From Eledone cirrhosa (taxonomy: Eukaryota), in assembly GCA_964016885.1 (NCBI GenBank), contig OZ024740.1:76012001-76076000 (forward strand): DNA of 64,000 nucleotides. The letters run 5' to 3'. Shown piece after piece: positions 4,951 through 51,781 of the stretch. Numbering within the stretch: the stretch's first letter is position 1; every line of letters begins with the position of its first letter. Below the pieces are notes generated by a model. It saw only the letters and a program-made list of their open reading frames with translations, did not search any database and was not told where the DNA came from. Position numbers and translations under genes: made by a program.

Positions 4951-6377
4951 TATACTAGCAGAATGGCCCAGCGTTGCTCGGGATTTGCTCTAGGGTTCTT
5001 ATATATTTGACATATATTTATCCTTATCGAGCCTCGTGAAATAAATATGTTTGTTTATATTTTGTTATTGTGTATGCAAAAATATATAATTATATATATA
5101 TTAAAATAACAGATTAAAGTTTAAGCAAAGAATCGCTGCTTTCACCCTTAACGGGATCTTCTGAAATTAAAAAAATCAATCTGTGAACGCAGAAGTAAAT
5201 ATTTCGAAAAACGTTACACACTATATATATATATATACCTCTAAAAGGTTCTCCCTAAAAATGAAAGGCAGGTTGTATGATGCCTGCACACGAACAGCAA
5301 TGTTGCATGGCAGTGAGACCTGGGCATTGTGTGCAGAGGATATACACAGACTAGAGAGGAACGAAGCTTGCATGCTCCGCTGGATGTGTAATAGTAATAT
5401 ACGTGAACGGCAAAGCATTAACGAACTAAGGGAAAAATTAGAAATAAGAGGGATCAGATGTTGTTTACTTGAGAGAAGGCTACGTTGGCATGGTCACGTG
5501 ATGCGCATGAAAGACGACAGCTGTATAAAAAAGTGCAGGGCAATAAAGATAGACGGTAGCCACGGAGTAGGCAGACCCAGAAAAACCTGGGACGACCTGA
5601 TAAATTCCGACCTCACACACTTACACCTCTCCAAGACAATGTCACTGGACCAAGATCTTTGGCGGTACTCAGTAATAGAGAAGACCCGCCTTGCCTAAAT
5701 ACGAAGTAAACCTACTACAGTCAGTAGGCATCTCTAACAAAATACGCCCCCGTCACACCACCCCCGCCCCTTTCAATGTAAAGTTACGTTGGTGCCACAA
5801 CATCCAGGCCGAAACAAATGAGATCGTGTAGGTGTCACAACAAAAAAACACACAGTCCACGCTGTAATGTGGCCGTGTAGGCAACACGGTAAAAACCTCC
5901 CAGTTCCACACTGTAAATGTGGTTGGTGTTAGGAAGGGCATCCAGCTGTAGAAAACCCGCCAGACAGTCCTATGCGAGCAAGACAACCACTCTTGCCTCA
6001 AGTGGGAAAACTCCCGTCCAAACCCATGCAAGCGTGGAACATGGACGTTAAACGATGATGATGATGATGATGACACACACTATATATACATGTATACACA
6101 CACACACACACACCATGTCATAATGTTGTAATGCAGACAGCCAGACATAGAGACAAATATCTATCTAAAAAGAGAAAGACTAAGAATTATAGCCAGAGAT
6201 CGCTAAATCGCCTAATGTAGTCCTTAGAGCATTGAAAATTTGAAATATTCTGTTCTCAAAACACTCGCAGGACCATAAGTATTACATGAATAAAGTTTGA
6301 AAACAATCGGTTGGGTGGTTCTCGAGTTTTAGTGAGCTGACAGACAGACAGACATTCTCTGTTTTAGATATATAGAT
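4951..6377 (+). mobile_element. Non-autonomous Helitron/Helentron-like (HINE-like) element with nested RTE fragment
   Basis: 5' end tactagcag..cccagcgttgctcggg; 3' end (caga)n..tttagatatatagat. The same end pattern recurs at 12153-14407. Confidence 0.55.
5238..6073 (+). mobile_element. RTE LINE 3' fragment
   Basis: ORF 5183-5698 (MLHGSETW..RRLRWHGHVMRM..GRPRKTW), followed by 3' UTR and a (GAT)n tail. Confidence 0.9.
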
Positions 6378-6564
6378 AATTGTTTCTACTTTTGGCACAA
6401 GGCCATCAATTACCCAGTACATTACTGGTACTTTATTTTATCGACCCCGTAAGGATGAAAGGCAAAGTTAACCTTGGCGTGATTTGAACTCAGAATGGCA
6501 AGGGCCGTAACTCTATACGTCAATGCATGGCGTCCGACCCTCTACCAATACTACCAATCCACCG
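6377..6564 (-). mobile_element. tRNA-derived SINE (~190 bp) with Deu/Nin-like central domain
   Basis: A-box tggtagtattggtagag, B-box gagttcaaatc, core gcctttcatccttacggggtcgataaa. TSD ATAGATAAT at 6372-6380 and 6565-6573. Confidence 0.85.
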
Positions 6565-8280
6565 ATAGATAATGTGAGTTCATGTAGTATATATATAACT
6601 GCGGGTTGTTGATTTGTTTGTAGTTGTTGTTTTGTGGAGATGCCAGACTAAGTGGTTAGGATATTGAATTTTGGCTGGCCATGTGTTCATATCTTGTCAC
6701 AGGTTTTGTGTCTCTGGGACATTGTCTCATATAGGGGTTCCTCCCTAATTAACCTTAATCCTTAATCACTGTCTTACCTTTATGATTTTATCTGATATTA
6801 CTTTAATTTTCTGAGTTATTCAACAAATTATGAGGTGTCATTTTTGTTTTTCTTTACACGTCCTTGTTTCTTTGTTCCTATTTATTAAAATAATATATAA
6901 ATGGTCAACAAATGTTTTTAGCTCTTAAAACAAAACATAAAAATATACTCTACTTTCGATTTCTATCTCAGCTTCAAATATACTGCTGTTGGTGTTTTAT
7001 GTGTTTCTATATAAAACCACTTTATCCTATATTACTATCTGAGAAGGTTTCCCGTAGCAGACCTGTAATGAGTCCTTATCAGAAATGTCTACATTGAACA
7101 AGTTTTTTTATATTATCCTTCCAAAAGAAAATTGCCATTAGAATCTGCCACATTATGACCACAATGGTGATGACATCTACTGGTATCATGTAACCCAGTA
7201 CAACCTGCTTCGTGGTTGAGTGGTCAGCTCCCACACCTGAGTCTGGTCTGATTAGGGGGATAAATGGAACCCCAGCAGCATAAAAAAACAAGAGCTATTA
7301 AAAAGGCAGATGAGTTAACTTCCATCCACCCCCCAACTATGAGTTAAATAGCCTCACCAACACACAATTGGCCAAGCATGGTGTGTATTGCTACATCCCT
7401 GACATAACCCTACCCCTCCAAAAAAGTGGTAGAGGTCAACCAGGAATGAGAAGGCACTGGATTGGATTGGTGATGACAGATCTGGTGTCTTTTGAAAAAG
7501 CCTTCAGTCTCTTCCTAGAACCATCTAAGCCATGTTCACTACATTGAATAGGTGTTGTCATTAAAATATTGGATTAAATGTCTTGTGGTATTTGTACCAG
7601 CTCTTTGTGTTCTGAGTTGAAATCTTGCTGAGGTCAACTTTCATCCTTTCGGGGTTAATAAAGTACCAGTCCAGGGCAGTGAGTGGATTGGCAGAATTGC
7701 TAAGGTGTTGGACGGGATGTCTTGTGGTATCTGTTCTGGTTCCATGTGGTCTATAGAAAGCTGGTGAAATCTGCACAAATGTGAGCTGTAGCAATAACAT
7801 TAAAAACTGGAGTCAAACACCAGTCATTGGTAAACAGAAGCCAATGTGTGTCATGAGCTGGGATATGCATAATTGAAGTAAAAAATGCTTTGTTTGGTTC
7901 AGTGGCTTATGTTTTATGTTAGATGTTTAGCTTCTTGAGACCTGTGTGAGCTTAAAATAGAATGTTATGTCATGCATACACTGTTGAGGCTCAACACTGA
8001 AATATCTTATGTGTCATGTCCTCTATGAACACTCACACAATGTGCTGTTTTATTGTGGGCTAAATAAAACATAAAATATATCACCCGTCCCACCTGGAAT
8101 GATATCTATGGTTAAATACTTCAGTATATATTATAATCTGACAGTTCTGTTACCTTTAATCTTGAATTTCAACAGACTTTGGCCTGTCTTGAGAAATTAA
8201 GGGTCATGGAGCATGAAGCTAACAACTTTATCTCCATTAATTAAAGCTTGTGCGACAATATTATTATTATTCCAGAATTG

Positions 8281-8465
8281 GCGGTGGATTGGCAGTATTG
8301 GTAGAGGGTCAGACGCCATGCTTTGACATATAGAGTTACGGCCCTTGCCATTCTGAGTTCAAATCCCGCTAAGGTTAACTTTGCCTTTCATCCTTACGGG
8401 GTCGATAAAATAAAGTACCAGTAATGCACTGGGTAAATGCTGGCCTTGTGCCTAAGGTAGAAATA
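8281..8465 (+). mobile_element. tRNA-derived SINE, full length
   Basis: Same family as 6377-6564, flanked by the ~21-bp TSD attattattattccagaattg. Mirror copy at ~49467-49652. Confidence 0.9.
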
Positions 8466-9913
8466 ATTATTATTATTCCAGAATTGTGCAGACTCACTAT
8501 AATCTTACTTCACTATCCTGATCTAGACAGTGCATCATTATAATATTAAATATGTTTTCATTCGCTGATAGTTTCGAGATTCTATGTGATTGCTTTTAAC
8601 TATCTAAACTATAATAAAGGAATGAGTGCGGGACTGCGTCCAGAATATATTTTTTTATCCCGTTTGTAAAATAAGTTGGATTACTTTGAATAAATAATAA
8701 ATGAATATTACATAATTTATCTACTAAATTTTGTTATTCTTCATTAAATATAAATAATATTGTTGCTTATTTTAAGATTCACTTCTTTAAAAATGTCAAC
8801 ACTTCCGGTTAGCGATCGCTTAAATAAACATTCATATATTTCCATCACTAATTTTCTCCTAATGCAGTTTATATATAATATCGTCTTTTTTAATGTATCA
8901 TGGATTACGTTACCGATTACATAAGACAGCGTAACGCAGTCTTCGTTCAATTTCTGTCTATGCTGTCAATTATGATTTTATTTGATGTATCATATCTACA
9001 TGTATATATACTTGCGTATAATATCAATATACACACTACACATGCTAGCAGAAAACCACCCGAAGGGTGGTATTTCTGCTAGTTAAGCTAATAATCGATG
9101 GTGAATGTTTTTATAATCTATTTTCATAAGATAGGAATTTATTTGGCTTATGGTAGGGACGGTAAAAGTCCATTATTTAGTTCGAAAGTTGCTTCCAGGA
9201 AATTCACAACCTCAATAGTTATGGTGATTCCATAATTCTTAAAGAACCTATGCAATAACGATTGAGTCTAACCATAAGGTCGTAAATTTCCTGGATATGC
9301 ATACTTAGAAATAGTTATGTAATAAACAAAAGAATTTTAGGGGAATATTAATATACAAACATAATTATGTCCATTTCTGGCTGTATCACATAGTGTCCCC
9401 ATTAATCAATTGTGATTTAGGGAGTCAAATATGAACTTATCCAAAACTAATTTGTTTAATCCTATAAAATAATTTCTAAGGTTAATTTTCCATGATGAAT
9501 TTTTGTTTGTCTCCTTCTTAAACCAAGATGTCAACATCCAACATTCGTGCGAAATACGAAACCCGACAAAATGTATTTGGTCTATATAGACTTGGTATTT
9601 AAGATGCATAATTAAATAACATATTCTGGTAATCTAATTTTTTCACCAATGACTATCGTTTTCTCACAGATGAGAATGAGCTGTGATCTTATTGAAATAG
9701 AGCTACATCTATAGATTGACTACATAAAACGAATTTTGTAACACTTTGAATAATTCGAGGTCATATCTCATTCGAAATGATTCTAAGGGAATAAATACGG
9801 TTCTTTGACGAAAGAAGATTAATTTCCCATTCATACCTTAGTCTATATTTGCTTTGCATTTATATGTATAACCACTCTTCCACGCTAATATCTCTTCTTC
9901 AAATGTTTATATA

Positions 9914-10691
9914 CAGTAATCCCCTGTTTATACGTACCAGAACCAACCACGATAAATGAAAATCCGCGATATAGAGAGACCCTAAATACAACTGTTGTTT
10001 TCATAGTTTAAGCCTTAAAATACCTCTCCTACATGCTTCAAGTACATATAAACTCATTAAAACACACTTCCGTATCCCTTTAGCATTTACATTACTCTAT
10101 ATATACTATTGTATGTTTGTGGGAAAGCCTTTACCTCACGTAATTATCTCACATAATATAGAATCTATGAGGTTTTGATATTATTTATTTTGAGAACAAT
10201 ACCTTAACATCAGTATAAGCAGCTGGTTACGGCCGGTTCAAAGAGAAAGATTGCCGGTTTAAATTCTAAAGGTTTAAAATACCTCTCCTTCATACTTTAA
10301 GTACATATAAACTCATTAGAAAACACTTGTATTTAAACACCAAAAACAGCCGGTAACTATTTTATAGAAACTACCACTGATTACCAATGAGGACCATTGC
10401 CAGCCATGGTAGCCACTTGGTAATAATACACTGCACATCTCCCGCTAACCTATGAAGGGTTTTTAGTAAAACAGTAATGAAACGAAAAATAAAAACATTT
10501 TTTATTGTTAAAGCCTTAAAGATGCCCCTTCCTTATGATATACACTTCAATCGAAACTTATTTAATAAGTTTAAAATTTAAACACTTTTTATTCAGACGT
10601 ATCGCGATAAGAAAATAGATATGTTCTAACGAAAAATCTGCAATGTAGCGGGATCGCGAAAAGTGAACCGCGATATAGTGGGGGATTACTG
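9914..10691. mobile_element. pogo/Tigger-like non-autonomous DNA transposon
   Basis: TIRs cagtaatcccc / ggggattactg flanked by TA; no transposase. Confidence 0.85.
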
Positions 10692-11024
10692 TATTATAAA
10701 AATGCATTGAGCTATTCCTTTCTCTTAAAAGCTGGTAATTACACTCTATAAGTTTAATTCTCTACTCTCCTTTGAGAATTGCTAATATAGTTCTAACTTT
10801 GATATATATACCCAGTGAGCGCTCTTTATATCTTTGTGTCTGACACAACTAGCACCTTAGAATGGATCTATATGAGCTGGATTACTCTTTGAAGAACATT
10901 CCCACTTCTTTTAACCATGTTTATTCTAAGCTTCTTCTTCCAAAAGCTGATGTTGTGAAACGCTTGACAATATATTTATATCTATATTTACTCCTAATTT
11001 ATATTTTTTCTTAATTTTTTCCTT

Positions 11025-11571
11025 AATGGAAACAGTGCACTTTTCATGTGAATGGAGTACCACTGAAGCAGGTAGAGAAATTGAAGTATCTCAGGGCCAT
11101 GGTCATGAGTGATGGAAGGCAGGAGGCTGAATTAAGTGCAGGAATTGCAAATGCTGGTACAATAATGCACCAGTTTCAACATTCAGTAATCAAAAGAAGG
11201 GAGGTAGGTGTAAAAGCCAAACTTGCTATCTTTAATTTGGTATTCATGCCAACCCTTACCTATGGTCATATATATATCTTGGATAATGTCCAAAAGAATA
11301 TGATCGTGAATACAAGCGGCCAAAATGAAGGGTCTTTGGAGTAACATTACTTGATAAAGTGCATAGCTCAGAGATCATAGTCACTCCAGGTAGAGCCGCT
11401 ACTTCTCTGAATTGAGAGATCACAGCTCCAATTCTATGGGCATGTGGTTAGAATGTCTGTTGAGCAAGATGGTTCAATAACATCCATGAGCTTGGCTGGT
11501 CTCGCTTGGGGATCCAGCTGGATCAGTTGGAGATGGTTGCCTCTGATGAAGAAGAAGAAGAAGAAGAAGAA
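11025..11571 (+). mobile_element. RTE-clade LINE 3' fragment (second family) with (GAA)8 tail
   Basis: ORF 11048-11344 (LKQVEKLKYL..SDGRQE..PTLTYGH); a short GAA tail follows. Confidence 0.7.
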
Positions 11572-12330
11572 ATATATTTATTAGTACAGATTAAAGTTTA
11601 AACAGAATTTCTGCTTCCACCTTATACACCGCTCTGTCGTGCCTGTTAAGGTGTTCAGTTGGAGCTATAGGATGACCCGAAAATATTTGCAAAAAATGAT
11701 GAGCAATTGCAAGGGCTATGAAGCAGTTCAGTGATGATATTAAAATAGAGTTTGGACTAGATCAAAGGTTCTCAACGGGGGGCATATGAAACCCTGGGGG
11801 CGTTTCGGAACTCCAGGCGGGCTTTTGGGGGCAAAGGTTCGTTGGGGGGGGGGCTTTGGGGCGCACTGGTAGGCTCTTTACTTTGGTAAGTTTTATAAGC
11901 CATATTTGTATGTCTCTGAGACAGCCAGTGTGAATGCATTTGAATGAGCATGCAGACAGCATAACTTATGGTCTGACTGCAGCTGTGAGCAGGTGTGCAG
12001 GTGTGTTTAGACATTAACCGGCAATTGAGATCCTAAAAATGGAAAAACCCAGTCAACTGGGTCAAGGACACTTTGAGCACAGCCAGTTAGAATCTTATAA
12101 ATTATTAACTCAACCGAAATGAGTTAACACTATGTAGATCTACTTTATTCCCTACTAGCAGATTTACCCGGCGTTGCCCAGGGTTTGAAATTATGCTAAG
12201 AATATACAGCTAGGAAGTAAAAGAAGAACATTATTTCTCCCCAACCTGTCAAAATATGCAGAAGTCTTCAATAATTAATGCAAACGAAGTATTTTATAGA
12301 TTTAATCGAATTACAATATTCTACGTTGAT

Positions 12331-13705
12331 GTCATCATCATCACCGTTTTACGTCCGTTCTTCCATGCTAGCATGGGTTAGACAGGTTGTCCTGTTGTGG
12401 GCAGTGTCTGGTCGGCTGACCATGCCTTGCTCATACAGGAACTGATTTTGGCTTGATTTCTACAGCTGGATGCCCTTCCTAACACCAACCTCATTTACAG
12501 TGTGGGCTGGGTGCTTTTTTGCTGTGGCACCTCCACGACCACCTTGCAGTGGGAGGGTGTGGGGAATATTGTCTATATGCTTCAGCTTGTACCCATAGGA
12601 GGTCGGGTATTCTATATTACTGCGTGACGCCAGAGTCCACGGTCGCCTTTCAGAGGTGTAATTGGGTAAGGTCGGCTTTTATCACCTCATCCCAGGTCTT
12701 CTTGGATCTCCCCACTCCGCGGTTTCCATTGACTTCTAGTGCTCTGCACATTTTTATGCAGCTGTCATCCTTCATACGCATCACATGTCCATACCAACGC
12801 AACCGCCTCTCCTGCACATAGCATTTGATTTCTCTTATGCTCAGTCTCTCTCTCAATTCATTTATGCTTTGTCGTTCGCGTATATTACTATTACACAATC
12901 ATCGGAGCATGCAGGCTTCGTTTCTTTCTAATCTACGTAAGTCTTCCACCTTCAGCGCCCAGGTCTCACTACCATGTAACATTGCTGTTCGGATACACGC
13001 ATCATACAGTCTGCCTTTCATTTTGAGGGAGAAGCCTTTTGCAGCTAGCAGTGGCAGTAGTTCCCTGAACTTCTTCCATCCCGTTCTTACCCTAGTTATT
13101 GTACTTTCTGAACACCCACCTCCGCTGCTAATTCGGTCACCTAGGTAGCAGAAGCTGTCTACTGTTTCTACAGAGCCCTCCCAGAGATTGGTGGTACTTG
13201 TTTCCTGTGGCTGTTTGCTGCTTGCTGTCCCAGCACAGCTGCTGCATGTGAAGTCTACATTCTTAATTAAGCTTCCTGAGATCCCGCTACATCTCGTGTA
13301 CCCATTGTTTGCATTTGGGGCAGAGAATGGAGTTCCTACCTACACCTTTCCTACATACTGAGCAAGGCCATTTCCCTGAGGGGATCTGGGTTCTGTTTTC
13401 TCGTCTACTTACAAGGACCTTAGTCTTTGTCATGTTGACTTTGAGACCCTTTCTTTCTAGTCCCTGCTTCCAAGTTTGGAATTTCTTCTCTAGTTCTACC
13501 ATAGATTCAGATATAAGTGCGAGGTCATCAGCATACAGGAGTTCCCATGGGCATCCGGTCTTAAACTCCTCTGTTATTGCCTGCAGGACTATGATAAACA
13601 GGAGAGGGCTAAGAACAGAGCCTTGGTGGACACCAACCTGTACGCTAAATTCCTCACTATACTCATTGCTAATCCTAACTTTGCTGACTGCTCCCTTATA
13701 CATGG
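12331..13705 (-). mobile_element. RTE LINE 3' fragment (pseudogenised)
   Basis: ORFs 13287-13703 (QGSVLSPLLF, LLYADDL, WPCSVC) and 12650-12898; (GAT)n tail at ~12331-12343. Confidence 0.9.
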
Positions 13706-13855
13706 CGCATCAAAACTCTTTATAAGGAGTGGATTATATGCAACAACCCATCTGTTGTCAACCTCATGTTTCCCAACCCTCGCTGTGAATCCACCATCTT
13801 TGGGTCTTCTCTGGCGATATAGTGGGTATCCGTCATGACCAGTCTGAGTGTCAAC
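13706..13855 (-). mobile_element. Helitron Rep/helicase coding fragment fused to the 5' end of the RTE fragment
   Basis: Translates TQTGHDGYPLYRQR..DNRWVVAYNPLL..F.A, matching the conserved Helitron DGYPxYRRR..DNRWVVPYNPxL motif. Confidence 0.75.
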
Positions 13856-14479
13856 ATGGCTTATGAAAGTTTTAAAAATGTAAAAGTTGTAGGTCCCAAT
13901 GGTTTGAATGGAAAGCCCCATAACGATTGTTCTAAAAATAAACAAACCATCATCAAAATCTCGTCAATTCGAGACTGCTGCGAGATTAGGCCCTTAACGT
14001 GAAAATTAACACTTAATATAGTGAAACAAGTTAAAACAACAAGTGTTTTTTTAACTTTGAAAGTGCAACAAAGAATAAAGAAACAAATGATAATATTAGT
14101 GATTTATCTTCAAATGAATCTGATGTTTATATTTGTCAATAAAGTTGGTTATCTCCCTTTTTTATAAGGATTGTCAATAAAGTTGGTTATCTCCCTTACA
14201 TCAATTTTGCTACCGATAATTTTGATATCGATTTTTTATTGCTCAACGTGGGTCGATTTGAAAATGTTTTGTGATGTGACCATCTTAGCGACCTGTGCAA
14301 CGCGCACAGAAAATTTGATCAAATTCGGTTGGTAATTGTAAAAGCCTTAGGTATCCAAAGTTGTACACATACACACACACACACACTCTCGCTTTTATAT
14401 ATATAGAAGAAGGTAGAAGATTGTATAAATATTACAAATAAAAAAAGAAAAGAAAAAACAGAGAAGCGGCTAGCACACA

Positions 14480-14620
14480 CACCTAGGACCACATACAACA
14501 CGAGGTAATACACACATCTAAGACCACATACAACACACAAGCAGGTAATACATACATCTAGGACTACATACAACACACAGGCAGGTATTACATACATCTA
14601 GGACCACATACAACATACAT
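14480..14620. repeat. ~39-bp tandem repeat x~4
   Basis: Unit approximately aggtaatacatacatctaggaccacatacaacacacagc. One inverted copy is at ~17222-17262. Confidence 0.8.
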
Positions 14621-16429
14621 TGTATCATGTGCTACGGATGACGCAAGAGCAATTGTCGGCCAACATAAGGTTTTGTCACTCTTATGAAGAGAGAAAATCT
14701 ATCTGTATTTGCTGTTCATTGTGTCATTCATCGACAACACTTGGCTGCAAAGAAACTCAGCAAGCCACTGAGCAAGTCATTGCAGGTGGCCATTGATGTC
14801 ATCAATTTTATCAAACGGCTTTCCCTCAATGAGCGAATTTCCGGCAACTGTGCCAAGATAATGACGAAGAATTCGTCAAGTTGCTCCTTCATACTGAAGT
14901 GAGGTGGCTTTCAAAGGGCAAGTGCCTTACTCACTTCTTTGAACTGTTCAACTCTATCATTGAGTTTCTGCGAGGACGCAACACAGAACTGTACAAGAAA
15001 ACCCTCGATGTGAGGCAAGACCGCCATCCTTGACAAATGCAATGGCGTCATTATGGCTTTGCAGGGAAAGATCACCTTGCTTAAAGCAAGGAATGCTGTG
15101 AAAACATTCCTGGCCAAATTGAATATCATCGAAAGGAATCTTTGTAGATGGGAATTCTATAATTTTCCTAATGTCACCAATGTTTAAAACATTGTGAGCG
15201 ATGACCAACTCCAAATTTATACCACTCACCTCCGTGTTCTACAAGACAATATGAGAGAACGGTTTGTCGACCTTTTGCCGATGGACATCCCAATGTGGAT
15301 AGCAGAACCCTTCATAGTTAATATCGACGATTTGGACATTAAATTTCAGGAAGTATTCATTGAACTTCAAGCAGATGACATGATCAAAATTAGATTTCCC
15401 AAAATAGGTGAACCCCTTTTTTGGATGCAAGAGGAAATTCAGCGTCGATTTCCACTCCTACATGCAGAGGCTAAGAGATTTGCTCTGCCTATTCCAACCT
15501 GGTACTTAGTCGAGAGGAGGTTTGGTGCTGTTTCGAGGCTGCACAGTAAGGCTCGCAACCGCTACAATGTAATTGCATGTGGAGATCTCAGGCTACATCT
15601 TACGAAAATCAGTCTCACGTCAAAGAGTTAACTAGACTCCATGAAGCTCAAGGGTTCTATTGAAATGAGGTCAAAGTTAAAGTAATCCGAAAACTTGGAT
15701 ATGCTATTGTTACAAAGCAAACTAACAACTTTTTTATTTGTAGTTGCAGTCTGACTGGACTGGAAACCATCTACTACAATTCACTTACTCATTTGTTGTA
15801 TATATTTTACCATTTACTAATAAATATACCCTCTTATATGGTCATGAAAACCCTCTTCCATGGTCTCTAAGCTCACAAAGCAGAGGGGACATCAAGTTAG
15901 ATATCAACATTTATTCTGTCCGTTTCATTAAAGGGAAAATTGGAAAGCTTTGAAATGATATAATTGCCACTTTCTTCCAGATAAGAGCACTCTTGGAATA
16001 GACAGAGTTGCTCATGTATAAATGTTCAAAATAGCTGGTATCGCCTGGTGGAAATATAAGAAATTCAACTGGTCCTTATTCATAAAAAAGAACATTTATG
16101 TTCCTTTTTTTTTAAATTTATATATTTCCTTTCAAGGAATGTATTTATACTCTCAGCTGCCTGCAATGGTATCTTTGGAATATTGTTAATCAATCTTTTA
16201 ATAATCTACTGATATCAAAATCAGTAGTATATTGAAAAATGAAAAAAAAAAAAAAGGGTAAGGCGTTTCGTGATTTCGAGGGACAAAAGGGGGCATTTGG
16301 CCCAAATGGACTGAGAACCTGTGGACTAGATGAATGTGCCAAATCCACGTTCATCAGATGCACATAGATATTAATGAACTACATATTTCAGGAGTCCCCT
16401 TTACTGCTGAAATGAAAAACAGAAAAAGC

Positions 16430-16670
16430 AATTGCTTGTTGACATGACCGTTCCTACAGACAAGAATGTATCTATAAAAACATTTGAAAAATTGAGCAAA
16501 AAAGTCCTGGAAATAGAGATTGGAAAAATGTGGAAGTTGAGAGCTAAAACAATACCAGTGGTTGTAGGCGCTCTAGGAATGATAAAGGGTCTAATGATTA
16601 CTTATCCCAAATCTCAGGAAACCTGCGTATAGAATAAATACAAAAGATAGTACTAATGGGAACTGCCCAT
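16430..16670 (+). mobile_element. R4/Dong-like (RLE) LINE 3' fragment
   Basis: LVDMTVPTD..EKLSK..LEIEI.KMW..TIPVVVGALG, the restriction-like endonuclease C-terminus. Confidence 0.75.
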
Positions 16671-16954
16671 ATACATTAGAAGAGTATATATACTTGGAAG
16701 AGGCTTTATAGCCGGTAAGAGTGTCAGACACCACGAGTCAAAACAATTTGAAATCTTTTCCACCATTAGTCGTCCATTCGTAACGTACGTTACGCTTTAG
16801 TTACATACACACACTACACGTAAATACATAAACAGATAGACAACAGAAGGGGTTGGTGAAATGCTATAGCGATGTGTGTTACGTCCCTTTCGGGTTTACT
16901 GGCTACGTAGCATATTCGTATATTAGTACATCTGTTATACGAAGTAAAATGATT

Positions 16955-33298: not shown

Positions 33299-33334
33299 TA
33301 TACATAGCACGGGAAACATAAACAATAATAATAA

Positions 33335-39412: not shown

Positions 39413-39499
39413 ATATATTAGCAAAAGGAAAAGAAAATGTTGACAAATTTTTCACTGGGAAAAATTTGTCAGCATTTTCTTTTCCTTTTACTAATATAT
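39413..39499 (+). other. 41-bp stem / 5-nt loop hairpin in presumptive caspase 3' UTR (right copy)
   Basis: 39413-39453 pairs with 39459-39499, with one C:A mismatch (39422/39490) and one U:G pair (39440/39472). Confidence 0.9.
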
Positions 39500-39691
39500 C
39501 ACAACTCGTGTGTTACACCTCTATTCTTTTAAATATATATATATATAGTCTGATATTGTGTTGTTTATTATGTAATTAAATAGCTCTGTACAATACATAG
39601 ACCACTCTTTTTTTCCTTTACTTTTTCTACGGAAATACTCAACACATAAACATATACGGTGGGGGGGGGGGGGGTTAATAAATAAACATTT

Positions 39692-39768
39692 TAAAAGCCC
39701 AGCTACGAATATTGAAAGGCTGACGACCAACCTTGTCCAGCGGATACCAGCAAAGAGCTGGGCTTTTA
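39692..39768. repeat. 77-bp element with 13-bp inverted termini (tiny MITE-like); mirror at ~17833-17909
   Basis: taaaagcccagct ... agctgggctttta. Confidence 0.55.
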
Positions 39769-41278: not shown

Positions 41279-44200
41279 CACAGGTTCTCAGCCCATTTGG
41301 GCCAAATGCCCCCTTTTGTCCCTCGAAATCACGAAACGCCTTACCCTTTTTTTTTTTTTCATTTTTCAATATACTACTGATTTTGATATCAGTAAATTAT
41401 TAAAAGATTGATTAACAATATTCCAAAGATACCATTGCAGGCAGCTGAGAGTATAAATACATTCCTTGAAAGGAAATATATAAATTTAAAAAAAAAGGAA
41501 CATAAATGTTCTTTTTTATGAATAAGGACCAGTTGAATTTCTTATATTTCCACCAGGCGATACCAGCTATTTTGAACATTTATACATGAGCAACTCTGTC
41601 TATTCCAAGAGTGCTCTTATCTGGAAGAAAGTGGCAATTATATCATTTCAAAGCTTTCCAATTTTCCCTTTAATGAAACGGACAGAATAAATGTTGATAT
41701 CTAACTTGATGTCCCCTCTGCTTTGTGAGCTTAGAGACCATGGAAGAGGGTTTTCATGACCATATAAGAGGGTATATTTATTAGTAAATGGTAAAATATA
41801 TACAACAAATGAGTAAGTGAATTGTAGTAGATGGTTTCCAGTCCAGTCAGACTGCAACTACAAATAAAAAAGTTGTTAGTTTGCTTTGTAACAATAGCAT
41901 ATCCAAGTTTTCGGATTACTTTAACTTTGACCTCATTTCAATAGAACCCTTGAGCTTCATGGAGTCTAGTTAACTCTTTGACGTGAGACTGATTTTCGTA
42001 AGATGTAGCCTGAGATCTCCACATGCAATTACATTGTAGCGGTTGCGAGCCTTACTGTGCAGCCTCGAAACAGCACCAAACCTCCTCTCGACTAAGTACC
42101 AGGTTGGAATAGGCAGAGCAAATCTCTTAGCCTCTGCATGTAGGAGTGGAAATCGACGCTGAATTTCCTCTTGCATCCAAAAAAGGGGTTCACCTATTTT
42201 GGGAAATCTAATTTTGATCATGTCATCTGCTTGAAGTTCAATGAATACTTCCTGAAATTTAATGTCCAAATCGTCGATATTAGCTATGAAGGGTTCTGCT
42301 ATCCACATTGGGATGTCCATCGGCAAAAGGTCGACAAACCGTTCTCTCATATTGTCTTGTAGAACACGGAGGTGAGTGATATAAATTTGGAGTTGGTCAT
42401 CGCTCACAATGTTTTAAACATTGGTGACATTAGGAAAATTATAGAATTCCCATCTACAAAGATTCCTTTCGATGATATTCAATTTGGCCAGGAATGTTTT
42501 CACAGCATTCCTTGCTTTAAGCAAGGTGATCTTTCCCTGCAAAGCCATAATGACGCCATTGCATTTGTCAAGGATGGCGGTCTTGCCTCACATCGAGGGT
42601 TTTCTTGTACAGTTCTGTGTTGCGTCCTCGCAGAAACTCAATGATAGAGTTGAACAGTTCAAAGAAGTGAGTAAGGCACTTGCCCTTTGAAAGCCACCTC
42701 CTGTCAGTATGAAGGAGCAACTTGACGAATTCTTCGTCATTATCTTGGCACAGTTGCCGGAAATTCGTTCATTGAGGGAAAGCCGTTTGATAAAATAGAT
42801 GACATCAATGGCCACCTGCAATGACTTGCTCAGTGGCTTGCTGAGTTTCTTTGCAGCCAAGTGTTGTCGATGAATGACACAATGAACAGCAAATACAGAT
42901 AGATTTTCTCTCTTCATAAGAGTGACAAAACCTTATGTTGGCCGACAATTGCTCTTGCGTCATCCGTAGCACATGATACAATGTATGTTGTATGTGGTCC
43001 TAGATGTATGTAATACCTGCCTGTGTGTTCTATGTAGTCCTAGATGTATGTATTACCTGCTTGTGTGTTGTATGTGGTCTTAGATGTGTGTATTACCTCG
43101 TGTTGTATGTGGTCCTAGGTGTGTGTGCTAGCCGCTTCTCTGTTTTTTCTTTTCTTTTTTTATTTGTAATATTTATACAATCTTCTACCTTCTTCTATAT
43201 ATATAAAAGCGAGAGTGTGTGTGTGTATGTGTACAACTTTGGATACCTAAGGCTTTTACAATTACCAACCGAATTTGATCAAATTTTCTGTGCGCGTTGC
43301 ACAGGTCGCTAAGATGGTCACATCACAAAACATTTTCAAATCGACCCACGTTGAGCAATAAAAAATCGATATCAAAATTATCGGTAGCAAAATTGATGTA
43401 AGGGAGATAACCAACTTTATTGACAATCCTTATAAAAAAGGGAGATAACCAACTTTATTGACAAATATAAACATCAGATTCATTTGAAGATAAATCACTA
43501 ATATTATCGTTTGTTTCTTTATTCTTTGTTGCACTTTCAAAGTTAAAAAAACACTTGTTGTTTTAAGTTGTTTCACTATATTAAGTGTTAATTTTCACGT
43601 TAAGGGCCTAATCTCGCAGCAGTCTCGAATTGACGAGATTTTGATGATGGTTTGTTTATTTTTAGAACAATCGTTATGGGGCTTTCCATTCAAACCATTG
43701 GGACCTACAACTTTTACATTTTTAAAACTTTCATAAGCCATGTTGACACTCAGACTGGTCATGACGGATACCCACTATATCGCCAGAGAAGACCCGAAGA
43801 TGGTGGATTCACAGCGAGGGTTGGGAAACATGAGGTTGACAACAGATGGGTTGTTGCATATAATCCACTCCTTATAAAGAGTTTTGATGCGCCATGTATA
43901 GGGGAGCAGTCAGCAAAGTTAGGATTAGCAATGAGTATAGCGAGGAATTTAGCGTACAGGTTGGTGTCCACCAAGGCTCTGTTCTTAGCCCTCTCCTGTT
44001 TATCATAGTCCTGCAGGCAATAACAGAGGAGTTTAAGACCGGATGCCCATGGGAACTCCTGTATGCTGATGACCTCGCACTTATATCTGAATCTATGGTA
44101 GAACTAGAGAAGAAATTCCAAACTTGGAAGCAGGGACTAGAAAGAAAGGGTCTCAAAGTCAACATGACAAAGACTAAGGTCCTTGTAAGTAGACGAGAAA

Positions 44201-45867
44201 ACAGAACCCAGATCCCCTCAGGGAAATGGCCTTGCTCAGTATGTAGGAAAGGTGTAGGTAGGAACTCCATTCTCTGCCCCAAATGCAAACAATGGGTACA
44301 CGAGATGTAGCGGGATCTCAGGAAGCTTAATTAAGAATGTAGACTTCACATGTAGCAGCTGTGCTGGGACAGCAAGCAGCAAACAGCCACAGGAAACAAG
44401 TACCACCAATCTCTGGGAGGGCTCTGTAGAAACAGTAGACAGCTTCTGCTACCTAGGTGACCGAATTAGCAGCGGAGGTGGGTGTTCAGAAAGTACAATA
44501 ACTAGGGTAAGAACGGGATGGAAGAAGTTCAGGGAACTACTGCCACTGCTAGCTGCAAAAGGCTTCTCCCTCAAAATGAAAGGCAGACTGTATGATGCGT
44601 GTATCCGAACAGCAATGTTACATGGTAGTGAGACCTGGGCGCTGAAGGTGGAAGACTTACGTAGATTAGAAAGAAACGAAGCCTGCATGCTCCGATGATT
44701 GTGTAATAGTAATATACGCGAACGACAAAACATAAATGAATTGAGAGAGAGACTGAGCATAAGAGAAATCAAATGCTATGTGCAGGAGAGGCGGTTGCGT
44801 TGGTATGGACATGTGATGCGTATGAAGGATGACAGCTGCATAAAAATGTGCAGAGCACTAGAAGTCAATGGAAACCGCGGAGTGGGGAGACCCAAGAAGA
44901 CCTGGGATGAGGTGATAAAAGCCGACCTTACCCAATTACACCTCTGAAAGGCGACCGTGGACTCTGGCGTCACGCAGTAATATAGAATACCCGACCTCCT
45001 ATGGGTACAAGCTGAAGCATATAGACAATATTCCCCACACCCTCCCACTGCAAGGTGGTCGTGGAGGTGCCACAGCAAAAAAGCACCCAGCCCACACTGT
45101 AAATGAGGTTGGTGTTAGGAAGGGCATCCAGCTGTAGAAATCAAGCCAAAATCAGTTCCTGTATGAGCAAGGCATGGTCAGCCGACCAGACACTGCCCAC
45201 AACAGGACAACCTGTCTAACCCATGCTAGCATGGAAGAACGGACGTAAAACGGTGATGATGATGACATCAACGTAGAATACTGTAATTCGATTAAATCTA
45301 TAAAATACTTCGTTTGCATTAATTATTGAAGACTTCTGCATATTTTGACAGGTTGGGGAGAAATAATGTTCTTCTTTTACTTCCTAGCTGTATATTCTTA
45401 GCATAATTTCAAACCCTGGGCAACGCCGGGTAAATCTGCTAGTAGGGAATAAAGTAGATCTACATAGTGTTAACTCATTTCGGTTGAGTTAATAATTTAT
45501 AAGATTCTAACTGGCTGTGCTCAAAGTGTCCTTGACCCAGTTGACTGGGTTTTTCCATTTTTAGGATCTCAATTGCCGGTTAATGTCTAAACACACCTGC
45601 ACACCTGCTCACAGCTGCAGTCAGACCATAAGTTATGCTGTCTGCATGCTCATTCAAATGCATTCACACTGGCTGTCTCAGAGACATACAAATATGGCTT
45701 ATAAAACTTACCAAAGTAAAGAGCCTACCAGTGCGCCCCAAAGCCCCCCCCCCCAACGAACCTTTGCCCCCAAAAGCCCCCCCCCCAACGAACCTTTGCC
45801 CCCAAAAGCCCGCCTGGAGTTCCGAAACGCCCCCAGGGTTTCATATGCCCCCCGTTGAGAACCTTTG
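41279..45867 (-). mobile_element. hAT transposon with nested HINE-like/RTE/Helitron pieces (right-arm mirror of 11763-16323)
   Basis: TSD ATCTAGTC on both sides; mirrored ORFs. Confidence 0.9.
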
Positions 45868-46058
45868 ATCTAGTCCAAACTCTATTTTAATATCATCACT
45901 GAACTGCTTCATAGCCCTTGCAATTGCTCATCATTTTTTGCAAATATTTTCGGGTCATCCTATAGCTCCAACTGAACACCTTAACAGGCACGACAGAGCG
46001 GTGTATAAGGTGGAAGCAGAAATTCTGTTTAAACTTTAATCTGTACTAATAAATATAT

Positions 46059-46181
46059 TTCTTCTTCTTCTTCTTCTTCTTCTTCTTCTTCTTCTTCTTC
46101 TTCTTCTTCTTCTTCTTCTTCTTCTTCTTCTTCTTCTTCTTCTTCTTCTTCTTCTTCTTCTTCTTCTTCTTCTTCTTCTTC
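46059..46181. repeat. (TTC)41 microsatellite, the tail of the RTE-clade fragment at 46059-46700
   Basis: Directly visible; the left arm has only 8 units. Confidence 0.95.
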
Positions 46182-47037
46182 ATCAGAGGCAACCATCTCC
46201 AACTGATCCAGCTGGATCCCCAAGTGAGACCAGCCAAGCTCATGGATGTTATTGAACCATCTTGCTCAACAGACATTCTAACCACATGCCCATAGAATTG
46301 GAGCTGTGATCTCTCAATTCAGAGAAGTAGCGGCTCTACCTGGAGTGACTATGATCTCTGAGCTATGCACTTTATCAAGTAATGTTACTCCAAAGACCCT
46401 TCATTTTGGCCGCTTGTATTCACGATCATATTCTTTTGGACATTATCCAAGATATATATATGACCATAGGTAAGGGTTGGCATGAATACCAAATTAAAGA
46501 TAGCAAGTTTGGCTTTTACACCTACCTCCCTTCTTTTGATTACTGAATGTTGAAACTGGTGCATTATTGTACCAGCATTTGCAATTCCTGCACTTAATTC
46601 AGCCTCCTGCCTTCCATCACTCATGACCATGGCCCTGAGATACTTCAATTTCTCTACCTGCTTCAGTGGTACTCCATTCACATGAAAAGTGCACTGTTTC
46701 CATTAAGGAAAAAATTAAGAAAAAATATAAATTAGGAGTAAATATAGAAATAAATATATTGTCAAGCGTTTCACAACATCAGCTTTTGGAAGAAGAAGCT
46801 TAGAATAAACATGGTTAAAAGAAGTGGGAATGTTCTTCAAAGAGTAATCCAGCTCATATAGATCCATTCTAAGGTGCTAGTTGTGTCAGACACAAAGATA
46901 TAAAGAGCGCTCACTGGGTATATATATCAAAGTTAGAACTATATTAGCAATTCTCAAAGGAGAGTAGAGAATTAAACTTATAGAGTGTAATTACCAGCTT
47001 TTAAGAGAAAGGAATAGCTCAATGCATTTTTATAATA

Positions 47038-47815
47038 CAGTAATCCCCCACTATATCGTGGTTCACTTTTCACGATCCCGCTACATCGCAGATTTTTCGT
47101 TAGAACATATCTATTTTCTTATCGCGATACGTCTGAATAAAAAGTGTTTAAATTTTAAACTTATTAAATAAGTTTCGATTGAAGTGTATATCATAAGGAA
47201 GGGGCATCTTTAAGGCTTTAACAATAAAAAATGTTTTTATTTTTCGTTTCATTACTGTTTTACTAAAAACCCTTCATAGGTTAGCGGGAGATGTGCAGTG
47301 TATTATTACCAAGTGGCTACCATGGCTGGCAATGGTCCTCATTGGTAATCAGTGGTAGTTTCTATAAAATAGTTACCGGCTGTTTTTGGTGTTTAAATAC
47401 AAGTGTTTTCTAATGAGTTTATATGTACTTAAAGTATGAAGGAGAGGTATTTTAAACCTTTAGAATTTAAACCGGCAATCTTTCTCTTTGAACCGGCCGT
47501 AACCAGCTGCTTATACTGATGTTAAGGTATTGTTCTCAAAATAAATAATATCAAAACCTCATAGATTCTATATTATGTGAGATAATTACGTGAGGTAAAG
47601 GCTTTCCCACAAACATACAATAGTATATATAGAGTAATGTAAATGCTAAAGGGATACGGAAGTGTGTTTTAATGAGTTTATATGTACTTGAAGCATGTAG
47701 GAGAGGTATTTTAAGGCTTAAACTATGAAAACAACAGTTGTATTTAGGGTCTCTCTATATCGCGGATTTTCATTTATCGTGGTTGGTTCTGGTACGTATA
47801 AACAGGGGATTACTG
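47038..47815. mobile_element. pogo/Tigger-like element (mirror of 9914-10691)
   Basis: Same TIRs and TA flanks. Confidence 0.85.
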
Positions 47816-49048
47816 TATATAAACATTTGAAGAAGAGATATTAGCGTGGAAGAGTGGTTATACATATAAATGCAAAGCAAATATAGACTAAGGTATGAAT
47901 GGGAAATTAATCTTCTTTCGTCAAAGAACCGTATTTATTCCCTTAGAATCATTTCGAATGAGATATGACCTCGAATTATTCAAAGTGTTACAAAATTCGT
48001 TTTATGTAGTCAATCTATAGATGTAGCTCTATTTCAATAAGATCACAGCTCATTCTCATCTGTGAGAAAACGATAGTCATTGGTGAAAAAATTAGATTAC
48101 CAGAATATGTTATTTAATTATGCATCTTAAATACCAAGTCTATATAGACCAAATACATTTTGTCGGGTTTCGTATTTCGCACGAATGTTGTATGTTGACA
48201 TCTTGGTTTAAGAAGGAGACAAACAAAAATTCATCATGGAAAATTAACCTTAGAAATTATTTTATAGGATTAAACAAATTAGTTTTGGATAAGTTCATAT
48301 TTGACTCCCTAAATCACAATTGATTAATGGGGACACTATGTGATACAGCCAGAAATGGACATAATTATGTTTGTATATTAATATTCCCCTAAAATTCTTT
48401 TGTTTATTACATAACTATTTCTAAGTATGCATATCCAGGAAATTTACGACCTTATGGTTAGACTCAATCGTTATTGCATAGGTTCTTTAAGAATTATGGA
48501 ATCACCATAACTATTGAGGTTGTGAATTTCCTGGAAGCAACTTTCGAACTAAATAATGGACTTTTACCGTCCCTACCATAAGCCAAATAAATTCCTATCT
48601 TATGAAAATAGATTATAAAAACATTCACCATCGATTATTAGCTTAACTAGCAGAAATACCACCCTTCGGGTGGTTTTCTTCTAGCATGTGTAGTGTGTAT
48701 ATTGATATTATACGCAAGTATATATACATGTAGATATGATACATCAAATAAAATCATAATTGACAGCATAGACAGAAATTGAACGAAGACTGCGTTACGC
48801 TGTCTTATGTAATCGGTAACGTAATCCATGATACATTAAAAAAGACGATATTATATATAAACTGCATTAGGAGAAAATTAGTGATGGAAATATATGAATG
48901 TTTATTTAAGCGATCGCTAACCGGAAGTGTTGACATTTTTAAAGAAGTGAATCTTAAAATAAGCAACAATATTATTTATATTTAATGAAGAATAACAAAA
49001 TTTAGTAGATAAATTATGTAATATTCATTTATTATTTATTCAAAGTAA

Positions 49049-49234
49049 GGGCGGTGGATTGGCAGTAACGGTAGAGGGTCGGACGCCATGCTTTGCAGCA
49101 CAGTTACGTCCCTTTACGGACTGAGTTCAAATCCCGCCGAGGTTAACTTTGCCTTTCATCCTTACGGGGTCGATAAAATAAAGTACCAGTAATACACTGG
49201 CATAATTGCTGGCCTTGTGTCAAAAGTAGAAACA
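49049..49234 (+). mobile_element. tRNA-derived SINE present only in the right arm
   Basis: 18-bp TSD ATTATTTATTCAAAGTAA at 49031-49048 and 49235-49252. The left arm has the empty site at 8681-8698. Confidence 0.95.
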
Positions 49235-51609
49235 ATTATTTATTCAAAGTAATCCAACTTATTTTACAAACGGGATAAAAAAATATATTCTGGACGCAGT
49301 CCCGCACTCATTCCTTTATTATAGTTTAGATAGTTAAAAGCAATCACATAGAATCTCGAAACTATCAGCGAATGAAAACATATTTAATATTATAATGATG
49401 CACTGTCTAGATCAGGATAGTGAAGTAAGATTATAGTGAGTCTGCACAATTCTGGAATAATAATAATTATTTCTACCTTAGGCACAAGGCCAGCATTTAC
49501 CCAGTGCATTACTGGTACTTTATTTTATCGACCCCGTAAGGATGAAAGGCAAAGTTAACCTTAGCGGGATTTGAACTCAGAATGGCAAGGGCCGTAACTC
49601 TATATGTCAAAGCATGGCGTCTGACCCTCTACCAATACTGCCAATCCACCGCCAATTCTGGAATAATAATAATATTGTCGCACAAGCTTTAATTAATGGA
49701 GATAAAGTTGTTAGCTTCATGCTCCATGACCCTTAATTTCTCAAGACAGGCCAAAGTCTGTTGAAATTCAAGATTAAAGGTAACAGAACTGTCAGATTAT
49801 AATATATACTGAAGTATTTAACCATAGATATCATTCCAGGTGGGACGGGGGATATATTTTATGTTTTATTTAGCCCACAATAAAACAGCACATTGTGTGA
49901 GTGTTCATAGAGGACATGACACATAAGATATTTCAGTGTTGAGCCTCAACAGTGTATGCATGACATAACATTCTATTTTAAGCTCACACAGGTCTCAAGA
50001 AGCTAAACATCTAACATAAAACATAAGCCACTGAACCAAACAAAGCATTTTTTACTTCAATTATGCATATCCCAGCTCATGACACACATTGGCTTCTGTT
50101 TACCAATGACTGGTGTTTGACTCCAGTTTTTAATGTTATTGCTACAGCTCACATTTGTGCAGATTTCACCAGCTTTCTATGAGGTTGCAGCTCCCCTATT
50201 TTTCCAATAACAGGAAGCAAGATTTGAACTCAGACCACATAGAACCAGAACAGATACCACAAGACATCCCGTCCAACACCTTAGCAATTCTGCCAATCCA
50301 CTCACTTCCCTGGACTGGTACTTTATTAACCCCGAAAGGATGAAAGTTGACCTCAGCAAGATTTCAACTCAGAACACAAAGAGCTGGTACAAATACCACA
50401 AGACATTTAATCCAATATTTTAATGACAACACCTATTCAATGTAGCGAACATGGCTTAGATGGTTCTAGGAAGAGACTGAAAGCTTTTTCAAAAGACACC
50501 AGATCTGTCATCACCAATCCAATCCAGTGCCTTCTCATTCCTGATTGACCTCTACCACTTTTTTGGAGGGGTAGGGTTATGTCAGGGATGTAGCAATACA
50601 CACCATGCTTGGCCAATTGTGTGTTGGTGAGGCTATTTAACTCATAGTTGGGGGGTGGATGGAAGTTAACTCATCTGCCTTTTTAATAGCTCTTGTTTTT
50701 TTATGCTGCTGGGGTTCCATTTATCCCCCTAATCAGACAAGACTCAGGTGTGGGAGCTGACCACTCAACCACGAAGCAGGTTGTACTGGGTTACATGATA
50801 CCAGTAGATGTCATCACCATTGTGGTCATAATGTGGCAGATTCTAATGGCAATTTTCTTTTGGAAGGATAATATAAAAAAACTTGTTCAATGTAGACATT
50901 TCTGATAAGGACTCATTACAGGTCTGCTACGGGAAACCTTCTCAGATAGTAATATAGGATAAAGTGGTTTTATATAGAAACACATAAAACACCAACAGCA
51001 GTATATTTGAAGCTGAGATAGAAATCGAAAGTAGAGTATATTTTTATGTTTTGTTTTAAGAGCTAAAAACATTTGTTGACCATTTATATATTATTTTAAT
51101 AAATAGGAACAAAGAAACAAGGACGTGTAAAGAAAAACAAAAATGACACCTCATAATTTGTTGAATAACTCAGAAAATTAAAGTAATATCAGATAAAATC
51201 ATAAAGGTAAGACAGTGATTAATGATTAAGGTTAATTAGGGAGGGGCCCCTATATGAGACAATATCCCAGAGACACAAAACCTGTGACAAGATATGAACA
51301 CATGGCCAGCAACAATTCAATATCCTCACCACTTAGTCTGGCATCTCCACAAAACAACAACTACAAACAAATCAACAACCCGCAGTTATATATATATTAC
51401 ATGAACTCACATTATCTATCGGTGGATTGGTAGTATTGGTAGAGGGTCGGACGCCATGCATTGACGTATAGAGTTACGGCCTTTGCCATTCTGAGTTCAA
51501 ATCACGCCAAGGTTAACTTTGCCTTTCATCGTTACAGGGTCGATAAAATAAAGTACCAGTAATGTACTGGATATTTGCTGGCCTTGTGCCAAAAATAGAA
51601 ACAATTAAT

Positions 51610-51779: not shown

Positions 51780-51781
51780 TG

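Follow-up and report, generated by a model that had tools for sequence, protein, structure and literature searches.

The 64,000-nucleotide window analysed here contains two caspase genes, one in each arm of a large inverted repeat (Table 1). Self-BLAST paired 6377-20304 with 51607-37292, boundaries exact, and the alignment bore out the geometry proposed in the first-pass annotation, with ~14-kb inverted arms, a 17.0-kb spacer and genes pointing outward. A quick tree placed the host, previously taken for a probable cephalopod, among the octopods. In a single gapped alignment of 13,922 columns, the arms differ by 60 substitutions (35 transitions and 25 transversions; 99.57% identity) and 11 indels, including a 204-bp SINE, 99 bp of extra (GAA)n and stretches of 51 and 33 bp. 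The core (7744-20304) has 39 substitutions, a divergence of 0.31% that agrees with the 99.7% identity first judged by eye. No third copy of the caspase-bearing part of the arm was found in the 264 kb around the window or among the 40 scored of 8,662 candidates in a genome search. The same 264 kb is free of N gaps. Elsewhere in the assembly, a 10-kb pair at 99.92% identity was met by chance. A literature search, mostly of papers outside subscription, returned nothing on this locus or on any cephalopod nuclear palindrome. The structure most likely belongs to a known kind, a young inverted segmental duplication carrying an intact caspase-3-like gene.

Table 1. Features of the palindrome and its surroundings (positions within the window)
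Feature	Position	Strand	Remarks
5' part of ~235-bp TIR element inside RTE-like LINE	2637..2828	-	Left copy of older duplication remnant
Left-only 3.6 kb	2769..6376		LINE piece, old repeat, presumed Helitron-like element (4957-6376)
Left arm	6377..20304		Donor copy; older repeats cross both its junctions
Outer tip	6377..6761 (right counterpart 51223-51607)		15 substitutions in 385 bp (3.9%, CI 2.2-6.3)
RTE-like LINE fragment, both arms	12332..13706	-	1.3% from column-wise majority of 20 kin; nearest kin 2.4%
Caspase-3/7-like ORF, left arm	18297..19148	-	Single exon, 283 aa; Peptidase_C14 E 7e-64; His123, QACRG Cys166
Putative promoter-proximal region	19400..19460	-	CCGG/GGAAG words in both arms
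Spacer, 16,987 bp	20305..37291		SINE copies, reverse-transcriptase and presumed Penelope-like fragments, minisatellite, LTR-like repeat
17-bp minisatellite, 467.8 copies, 7.9 kb	25111..33052	+	Single orientation
Young LTR-like repeat	36603..37297	+	2.7-2.9% from 5 fetched kin; last ~40 bp missing
Right arm	37292..51607		Derived inverted copy
Second caspase ORF, right arm	38449..39300	+	283 aa; Peptidase_C14 E 6e-64; His123, QACRG Cys166
Right-arm-only SINE	49030..49234	+	Target-site duplication ~18 bp
3' part of same TIR-element insertion and continuing LINE	51611..51980	+	11 differences in 125 bp (8.8%) from left

Both caspase ORFs are intact, as first described, and the left ATG lies 1,156 bp from the inner edge, close to the earlier figure of ~1.15 kb. 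The Pfam domain Peptidase_C14 spans residues 47-281, and the closest solved relatives are caspase-3 and -7. With this domain, the catalytic His, the Cys of the QACRG motif and a short prodomain, the arm genes are predicted to be effector caspases of the caspase-3/7 type. The right copy differs from the left only by E71D and T100K (two nonsynonymous and no synonymous differences; 99.3% alike at the protein level), and at residue 100 the left copy has T where most relatives have K. No substitution separates the arms from 19172 to 19737, and the CCGG/GGAAG words of the putative promoter-proximal region are, we assume, ETS-like. A sigma-70 promoter scan gave chance-level counts, the motif being inapplicable to a eukaryotic host. 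Apart from the caspases, the long ORFs of either arm encode fragments of reverse transcriptase or match nothing in Pfam.

The ~17 kb that separates the arms is more than unique sequence; 7.9 kb of it is minisatellite, and retroelement fragments, some of them presumably Penelope-like, are also present. The minisatellite core words occur 353 times on the plus strand and never on the minus strand, and long ORFs at 24985-33307 were rejected as genes, being minisatellite read-through. Neither a host gene nor a transposase was found among the spacer ORFs scanned, and a comparison of the two spacer halves for an inner remnant matched only SINE copies.

The arm pair ends at 6377/51607, as originally delimited, but homology formerly extended further, leaving remnants at 2637-2768 and 51611-51735. 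The LINE reaches the 5' TIR on the left and resumes past the 3' TIR on the right, and the two remnants are the only copies of this TIR-element family within 264 kb. The left and right TIR elements therefore stem from a single insertion into the same LINE, which means that an older inverted copy was once present. The remnant copies have only one private letter in common, and some other family members are as close to them as they are to each other. The left-only 3.6 kb, which includes an element that we take to be Helitron-like from its TC...CTAG ends, would have been deleted from the right side at an ATCTAT microhomology, and such a deletion explains the outer boundary. In the outer tip, nine derived letters fall on the right arm and six on the left, and raised divergence runs 197 bp past the tip SINE (8/197 differences). 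Recombination between SINEs was considered as the only origin of the outer boundary and dropped, as both arms have private SINE letters in common and the raised divergence outruns the SINE. A giant TIR element or mobile caspase cassette was rejected, as the 264 kb and the 40 scored genome candidates yielded no further copy of the unique arm sequence and no target-site duplication was found; the outer flanks of the arms are not duplicated targets.

The left arm is the donor and the right arm the derived copy, since older repeats span both left junctions and a young repeat is cut short at the right inner junction. A copy of repeat C5 (20285-20371) crosses the left inner junction, and a copy of repeat C13 matches 4806-4954 and 6565-6869, across the left outer junction. 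The new inner junction is the one at which the right arm is joined to the LTR-like repeat, with 3-bp exact (5/6) microhomology at 37292-37297. The missing tail of this repeat is absent near either boundary in the 264 kb, where only two 22-24-bp matches were found, near 98.7 and 99.8 kb. A staggered-break inversion was dropped given this absence and the resumption of the LINE beyond 2637. A template switch of the type considered below has one junction inside pre-existing inverted homology, here marked by the outer remnants and the divergence step, and a second at microhomology or blunt, here the microhomology at 37292-37297.

From the outside in, divergence falls in steps of 8.8, 3.9, 0.61 and 0.31%, with a step between 6761 and ~7245; at 0.31%, the probability of at least 15 substitutions in 385 bp is 3e-12. 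This stepped profile, with a core far more alike than the outer remnants, indicates that the core was re-copied after the older inverted copy existed. The transposons support the same order of events: the LINE common to both arms, at 1.3% from its majority, is younger than the 8.8% remnant, and the only arm-specific insertion, the SINE of the right arm, is young, as its nearest kin are up to 99% identical. Across the core, the 35 events are spread evenly, as in a Poisson process (KS p 0.41; gap CV 0.92, p 0.57), an evenness reached in only 3-6% of simulated runs of steady conversion with 500-5,000-bp tracts; tracts of 50-150 bp were compatible with the data (p 0.11-0.30). The inner 385 bp contain two differences (P = 3e-5 if as old as the tip), and since the inner edge is not raised, the inner junction fits an age as young as the core. 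A weak test for GC-biased conversion gave no signal, with 12/34 weak-to-strong changes in the arms and 158/501 in other copies (p 0.70); against an assumed bias of 0.7, P was 0.04. The contrast between 0.31% and 3.9/8.8% upholds the arm-to-arm re-copying envisaged in the first-pass annotation, but a single event is favoured by the uniform core, the unshielded inner edge and the missing GC signal. The same annotation had the palindrome preserving the caspase pair; this found no support, as two intact frames are often expected by chance at the age of the core and the two gene differences are both amino-acid changes, none silent. Nor does it gain support from GC bias or from an older shielded inner zone, neither of which is seen.

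The palindrome is located on C1, the largest chromosome of the assembly (443 Mb), and the position of Z markers lends no support to the hemizygous setting earlier suggested as possible. Three of the four Z-marker families searched match C28 within 55-61 Mb (eIF5-family at 55.4 Mb, PRPS-family at 59.0 Mb and FHIP-family at 61.0 Mb) and none matches C1; the PRPS-family match on C28 is weak, with the best PRPS matches on C27 and C1256, and the fourth family, PF16471 (SPAG9/JIP), gave no match. The ortholog of this site in O. bimaculoides is carried by a 127-Mb chromosome, and the Z dotplot axis of that species reaches 55 Mb; for octopus, PMC10925132 reports no W. The chromosome bearing the palindrome is likely an autosome.

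The combined results suggest a model, to which we assign a probability of about 45%, in which the core arose through a single long template switch that an older inverted repeat had primed. In a first step, an inverted copy of the outer part, older and probably shorter, would have been placed ~45 kb from its source, from which it is now 4-9% diverged. Later, a replication fork broken within this old copy would have invaded the left copy and replicated ~13 kb inward, through the caspase, before microhomology in the LTR-like repeat at 37297 brought it back to its original template. The core would be ~0.65 million generations old if a borrowed rate of 2.4e-9 applies. PMC11293582 describes a two-switch mechanism that begins with inverted-repeat homology and ends with NHEJ or microhomology-mediated BIR. 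The model is weakened by its need for two events, where steady conversion takes one duplication and a normal process. The 3.9% of the tip fits the age of the LTR-like repeat, so that a single old duplication is also consistent in time; the age of the shared LINE overlaps the lower bound of the tip; and the remnants show no special mutual closeness. Further, the 0.31% of the core is near the allelic diversity of O. bimaculatus (0.26%), and the GC test is weak.

A long-lived autosomal palindrome, in which steady arm-to-arm conversion keeps the core at ~0.3%, appears rather unlikely to us. It would derive from a single duplication 4-9% ago (~8-18 million generations), its outer edge shielded by indels, and it accounts for a core divergence 12-28 times below that of the outer remnants, for tip changes on both arms and, with tracts of 50-150 bp, for the evenness of the core. 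The needed rate, calculated at ~1e-6 per base per generation, is below the 1.5e-4 given for human P6 in the accessible text of PMC8600007; allelic diversity in two Octopus species (0.07-0.26%) is far under 4-9%; and Argonauta also has a 96%-identical caspase pair at the locus. Against such conversion stand the inner edge without a shielded zone, the uniform core, the GC test, the lone young arm-specific insertion and the absence of synonymous coding differences, and the young 1.4-kb LINE, if later than the duplication, must have been copied across. That this conversion also keeps the caspase pair of an autosomal palindrome ~8-18 million generations old 12-28 times more alike than its age implies is slightly less probable again.

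A recent full-length duplication, followed by an ordinary crossover that put a deeply divergent allele at the outer end of the donor arm, would also be expected to give a uniform core, a young inner junction and one young arm-specific SINE, and the divergent part is indeed the part most distant from the new copy. This would require alleles 4-9% apart, together with independent deletions of 3.6 kb and ~0.4 kb; with divergence between the two Octopus species at 1.2% and the within-species values given above, though the host's own diversity may differ, we regard it as improbable. An assembly artefact, with two haplotypes joined inverted and the switch in the spacer, e.g. in the 7.9-kb minisatellite, is the least probable explanation. 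The core difference is of allelic size, a long tandem array lies in the spacer, the assembly holds the other near-identical pair noted above, and, according to the accessible text of PMC5916493, palindromes of the A. vaga assembly were not found in A. ricciae. However, an assembler would not be expected to create the novel sequence join at the right inner junction, with its 3-5 bp of microhomology; under a simple inversion polymorphism the left spacer sequence should lie beside both arms, which is not seen; the minisatellite keeps one orientation throughout; and the region is gap-free over 264 kb.

The structure can be compared with known systems, in each case as far as the accessible text of the cited papers goes. 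The human X carries 26 palindromes (PMC8327919), with gBGC described in X palindromes (PMC8981503). Like primate X/Y palindromes (PMC8327919, PMC8600007), the octopus structure has arms of at least 8 kb at no less than 99% identity (thresholds from PMC8327919; here 13.9 kb at 99.57%), inverted about a spacer and with a protein-coding gene. Unlike them, it probably lies off the sex chromosome, three of the four Z-marker families matching C28 and none C1, it has no GC-biased signal, and its inner junction is probably as young as the core. Inverted-repeat-primed template switches (DUP-TRP/INV-DUP, PMC11293582) similarly have one junction in older inverted homology and the other at microhomology, whereas the octopus segment is duplicated rather than triplicated, its spacer is single-copy and the stretch that it replaced is lost, the event being reconstructed from one assembly. 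In fold-back inverted duplications with a disomic spacer (PMC3907307), a normal-copy spacer likewise parts the inverted copy from its source, but these adjoin terminal deletions, translocations or rings, whereas the octopus structure is interstitial, its outer end rejoined via old homology.

The site, judged from synteny and sequence, is the ancestral octopod caspase-3-like locus beside GLB1L2, which lies ~92 kb from the left caspase gene. A Pfam scan of 111 of 333 candidate flank ORFs found a single host gene, a beta-galactosidase; one CMD match was below the cut-off, and the others were transposon-type or gave nothing. In O. vulgaris, GLB1L2 (CAI9722922) directly precedes at least 12 caspase accessions (CAI9722923-38), and in Argonauta it adjoins a caspase pair known as adjacent accessions (GAB1604668-69), so that synteny, caspase clade and the presence of several adjacent copies are alike. 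The O. vulgaris copies, known as accessions without orientation, are 68-96% alike (median 79%), whereas the two copies here are inverted and far closer. Elsewhere in octopods the locus is already known as a birth-and-death caspase array, and at somewhat under even odds the palindrome is an ordinary copy-number gain in a family with such turnover. If steady conversion were the true explanation, palindrome arms would here be maintained by conversion on an invertebrate autosome, a rare case of palindrome self-repair outside sex chromosomes in a cephalopod, with datable transposon markers and a measurable rate; concerted evolution of a caspase pair at the GLB1L2 locus might then be recurrent, as the Argonauta pair could indicate. 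If the template-switch model holds, the locus would show in an invertebrate how an older inverted repeat can prime an inverted duplication, and would be one well-resolved gene birth within the caspase-3-like expansion of octopods, with nested transposons recording its history; the predicted effect, if both copies are expressed, would be a higher caspase dose.

The first-pass annotation had described a palindrome with an intact, outward-facing caspase gene in each arm, and this description proved accurate. Self-BLAST of the window returned the inverted pair, and the gapped arm-to-arm alignment holds 60 substitutions and 11 indels over 13,922 aligned columns. Each arm encodes a single-exon, 283-aa Peptidase_C14 protein with His123 and the QACRG Cys166; among proteins of solved structure, caspase-3 and -7 are its best relatives. 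Both genes face outward, and 1,156 bp separate the left ATG from the inner edge. The two proteins differ solely at codons 71 (E/D) and 100 (T/K), and the closest proteins are Octopus caspase-3-like sequences (61-70% identity). A quick tree with 51 rows grouped the copies from octopods in one clade (30 rows, SH-aLRT 99), and the eight E. cirrhosa copies that it included in a subclade (support 96). The minisatellite of the spacer could be a fragile site.

Features of the palindrome, its surroundings and related loci (window coordinates unless a contig or retrieved piece is named)
Feature	Position	Size	Remark
Left arm	6377-20304		
Right arm	37292-51607		inverted
Tip	6377-6761	385 bp	
Core	7744-20304		
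Spacer		16,987 bp	7.9 kb is a 17-bp minisatellite, single orientation
Minisatellite	25111-33052		all three + frames nearly without stops (up to 1,875 aa); opposite strand G-rich, GC skew about -0.8
Remnant beyond tip	2768-2637 / 51611-51735		
Segment lost from right copy	2769-6376		ATCTAT microhomology
Left outer junction matches	4806-4954, 6565-6869		repeat copy on contig C13
LINE pile	52785-63898, on to about 70200		young; includes two almost complete elements from different clades
Repeat within LINE pile	57253-60444 / 64173-67381		97.8% identity
Helitron Rep and PIF1 helicase fragments	L024:8242-9270, L025:3-1258		~70 kb right of right arm
Caspase cluster	C28:80348632-80430016 (L078-L089)		
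Fifth C28 caspase	90.63 Mb		
C3 caspase	C3:235312778-235318873 (L090-L091)		
C3 direct duplicate	C3:252950001, C3:252574053 (L096/L097)	>=10 kb	99.92%, 376 kb apart

Divergence between the arms is uneven: 3.9% in the tip (15/385 bp, CI 2.2-6.3; nine derived letters on the right, six on the left), 0.61% in the adjoining stretch (6/982) and 0.31% in the core (39/12,561). Past the tip, a remnant of inverted homology differs at 11 of 125 sites (8.8%). It belongs to a TIR family with 307 first-look candidates genome-wide and no copies besides these two in the surrounding 264 kb. The sequence of a host LINE extends as far as the left 5' TIR and picks up again past the right 3' TIR, so both elements descend from one insertion; the copies also have one private letter in common, weak evidence taken alone, and the right copy has lost the adjoining segment at a microhomology. 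Since diversity is 0.07-0.26% in two Octopus species (PMC13669787), values that may not be those of E. cirrhosa, the outer divergence of 4-9% is unlikely to be allelic. Together, these sequence comparisons show that an older inverted copy was already present when the core was re-copied.

The left arm is the donor, judging from its junctions. A repeat copy on contig C5 can be aligned through the left inner junction, and the copy matching the left outer junction is continuous once two insertions, a SINE and a Helitron-like element, are taken out. The right arm, by comparison, abuts an LTR-like repeat lacking its last ~40 bp (2.7-2.9% from five fetched kin), joined at an exact 3-bp microhomology, and only the right arm carries a young SINE, which has a target-site duplication.

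How the core was re-copied was weighed between one long template switch, to which we lean, and steady conversion. The 35 core events are uniformly spread (KS p 0.41), an evenness that simulated steady conversion matched in 4%, 3% and 6% of 600 runs at mean tracts of 500, 1,500 and 5,000 bp, and in 30% and 11% at 50 and 150 bp. The inner 385 bp hold two differences (P 3e-5 were the tip rate to apply). Relative to the column-wise majority of 20 kin, a LINE common to both arms is 1.3% diverged. There is no excess of weak-to-strong changes (12/34 in the arms vs 158/501 in 40 other copies, p 0.70); a bias of 0.7, the value in PMC8981503, would give 52%, and the arm count has P 0.04 under it. Together, the uniform core, inner edge, shared LINE and lack of weak-to-strong excess favour a single switch. 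It would have been primed in old homology near 6761-7245 and ended at 37297 by microhomology, much as outlined in the two-switch model of inverted duplication (PMC11293582). The conversion proposed in the first-pass annotation holds in so far as the core was re-copied (0.31% vs 3.9% and 8.8%), but the evidence leans to a one-off event rather than an ongoing process. One old duplication followed by short-tract conversion is the less likely reading, although short tracts are compatible with the evenness. At a rate of 2.4e-9 per generation, borrowed from an Octopus study (PMC13669787), the core, tip and remnant date to 0.65, 8 and 18 million generations, and the tip age agrees with that of the LTR-like repeat, which keeps such a history in consideration. 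Far less probable is an assembly artefact, even though the core difference is allelic in size, no rotifer palindrome recurred in a sister assembly in the data of PMC5916493, and chance discovery of the C3 direct duplicate revealed either a very recent duplication or an assembly duplicate: the 264 kb contain no N, the minisatellite array holds one orientation, and the right inner junction consists of new sequence, which a simple inversion polymorphism would not produce.

The proposal that the palindrome preserves the caspase pair found no support. At 0.31%, ~2.6 coding differences are expected; the two observed are both nonsynonymous. Chance alone gives a probability of ~0.89 for no nonsense change and of ~0.51 for no indel (arm-wide indel rate), so intact frames do not count as evidence of either selection or repair. 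Nor does a hemizygous chromosome seem to be involved. The assembly spans 3.0 Gb; contig C1, which holds the window, measures 443 Mb, and among 20 further contigs measured, sizes decrease from C2 to C27, followed by C28 at 136 Mb. Four chromosomes of 379-443 Mb precede a fall to at most 135 Mb, and the probable Z, at 136 Mb, is well above the 55-Mb axis given for the O. bimaculoides Z. The octopus system is described as ZZ/Z0, with no W found and conserved Z genes listed (PMC10925132). Of four Z-gene families searched for in the genome, those of eIF5, PRPS and FHIP match C28, at 55.4, 59.0 and 61.0 Mb; none has a match on C1, and the fourth, PF16471, has none in the assembly. Those that matched also have matches on contigs other than C28, where the PRPS match is weak (E 5e-4; best matches on C27 and C1256). 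The eIF5 match on C28 is presumably eIF5 rather than eIF2-beta, by its sequence features. Our inference is that C28, and not C1, is the Z.

The size and identity of the arms agree with those of primate palindromes as defined in PMC8327919, but the sex-chromosome feature is absent. The structure also resembles the inverted-repeat-primed (PMC11293582) and fold-back (PMC3907307) inverted duplications outlined in those sources. A literature search at the level of listings returned no paper on this locus or on any cephalopod nuclear palindrome, and the main text of bioRxiv 10.1101/2024.12.09.627507, as available, lacks the words 'palindrome' and 'caspase'. The E. cirrhosa inverted caspase duplication belongs to a known kind of structure.

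Seven further single-exon paralogs (55-64%) occur in the genome, five on C28 and one each on C3 and C14, placing five of the nine copies on the probable Z. In the C28 cluster, three paralogs lie in 1.66-kb tandem units, one with QASRG instead of QACRG; a fourth copy, in inverted orientation and 91-92% identical, lies beyond a 41.5-kb satellite. With this cluster, the C3 caspase has in common the 1.45 kb surrounding the gene (94%) and another 1.5 kb (97.7%), which suggests that the single-exon gene moved between chromosomes at the DNA level. To the left of the left-arm caspase, at a distance of some 92 kb, is a beta-galactosidase exon best matched by O. vulgaris GLB1L2 (83%). By accession order, that gene (CAI9722922) is directly followed by at least 12 caspases within CAI9722923-38, 68-96% alike, and in Argonauta two caspases (GAB1604668-69; 96%) adjoin GLB1L2 (GAB1604670). 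The Argonauta pair beside GLB1L2 was found on two contigs (P0019, P0125, P0126). Caspase copies and GLB1L2 also share one chromosome in O. sinensis and O. bimaculoides. The arm caspases thus sit at the ancestral array of octopod caspases, which holds several copies in all the octopods seen.
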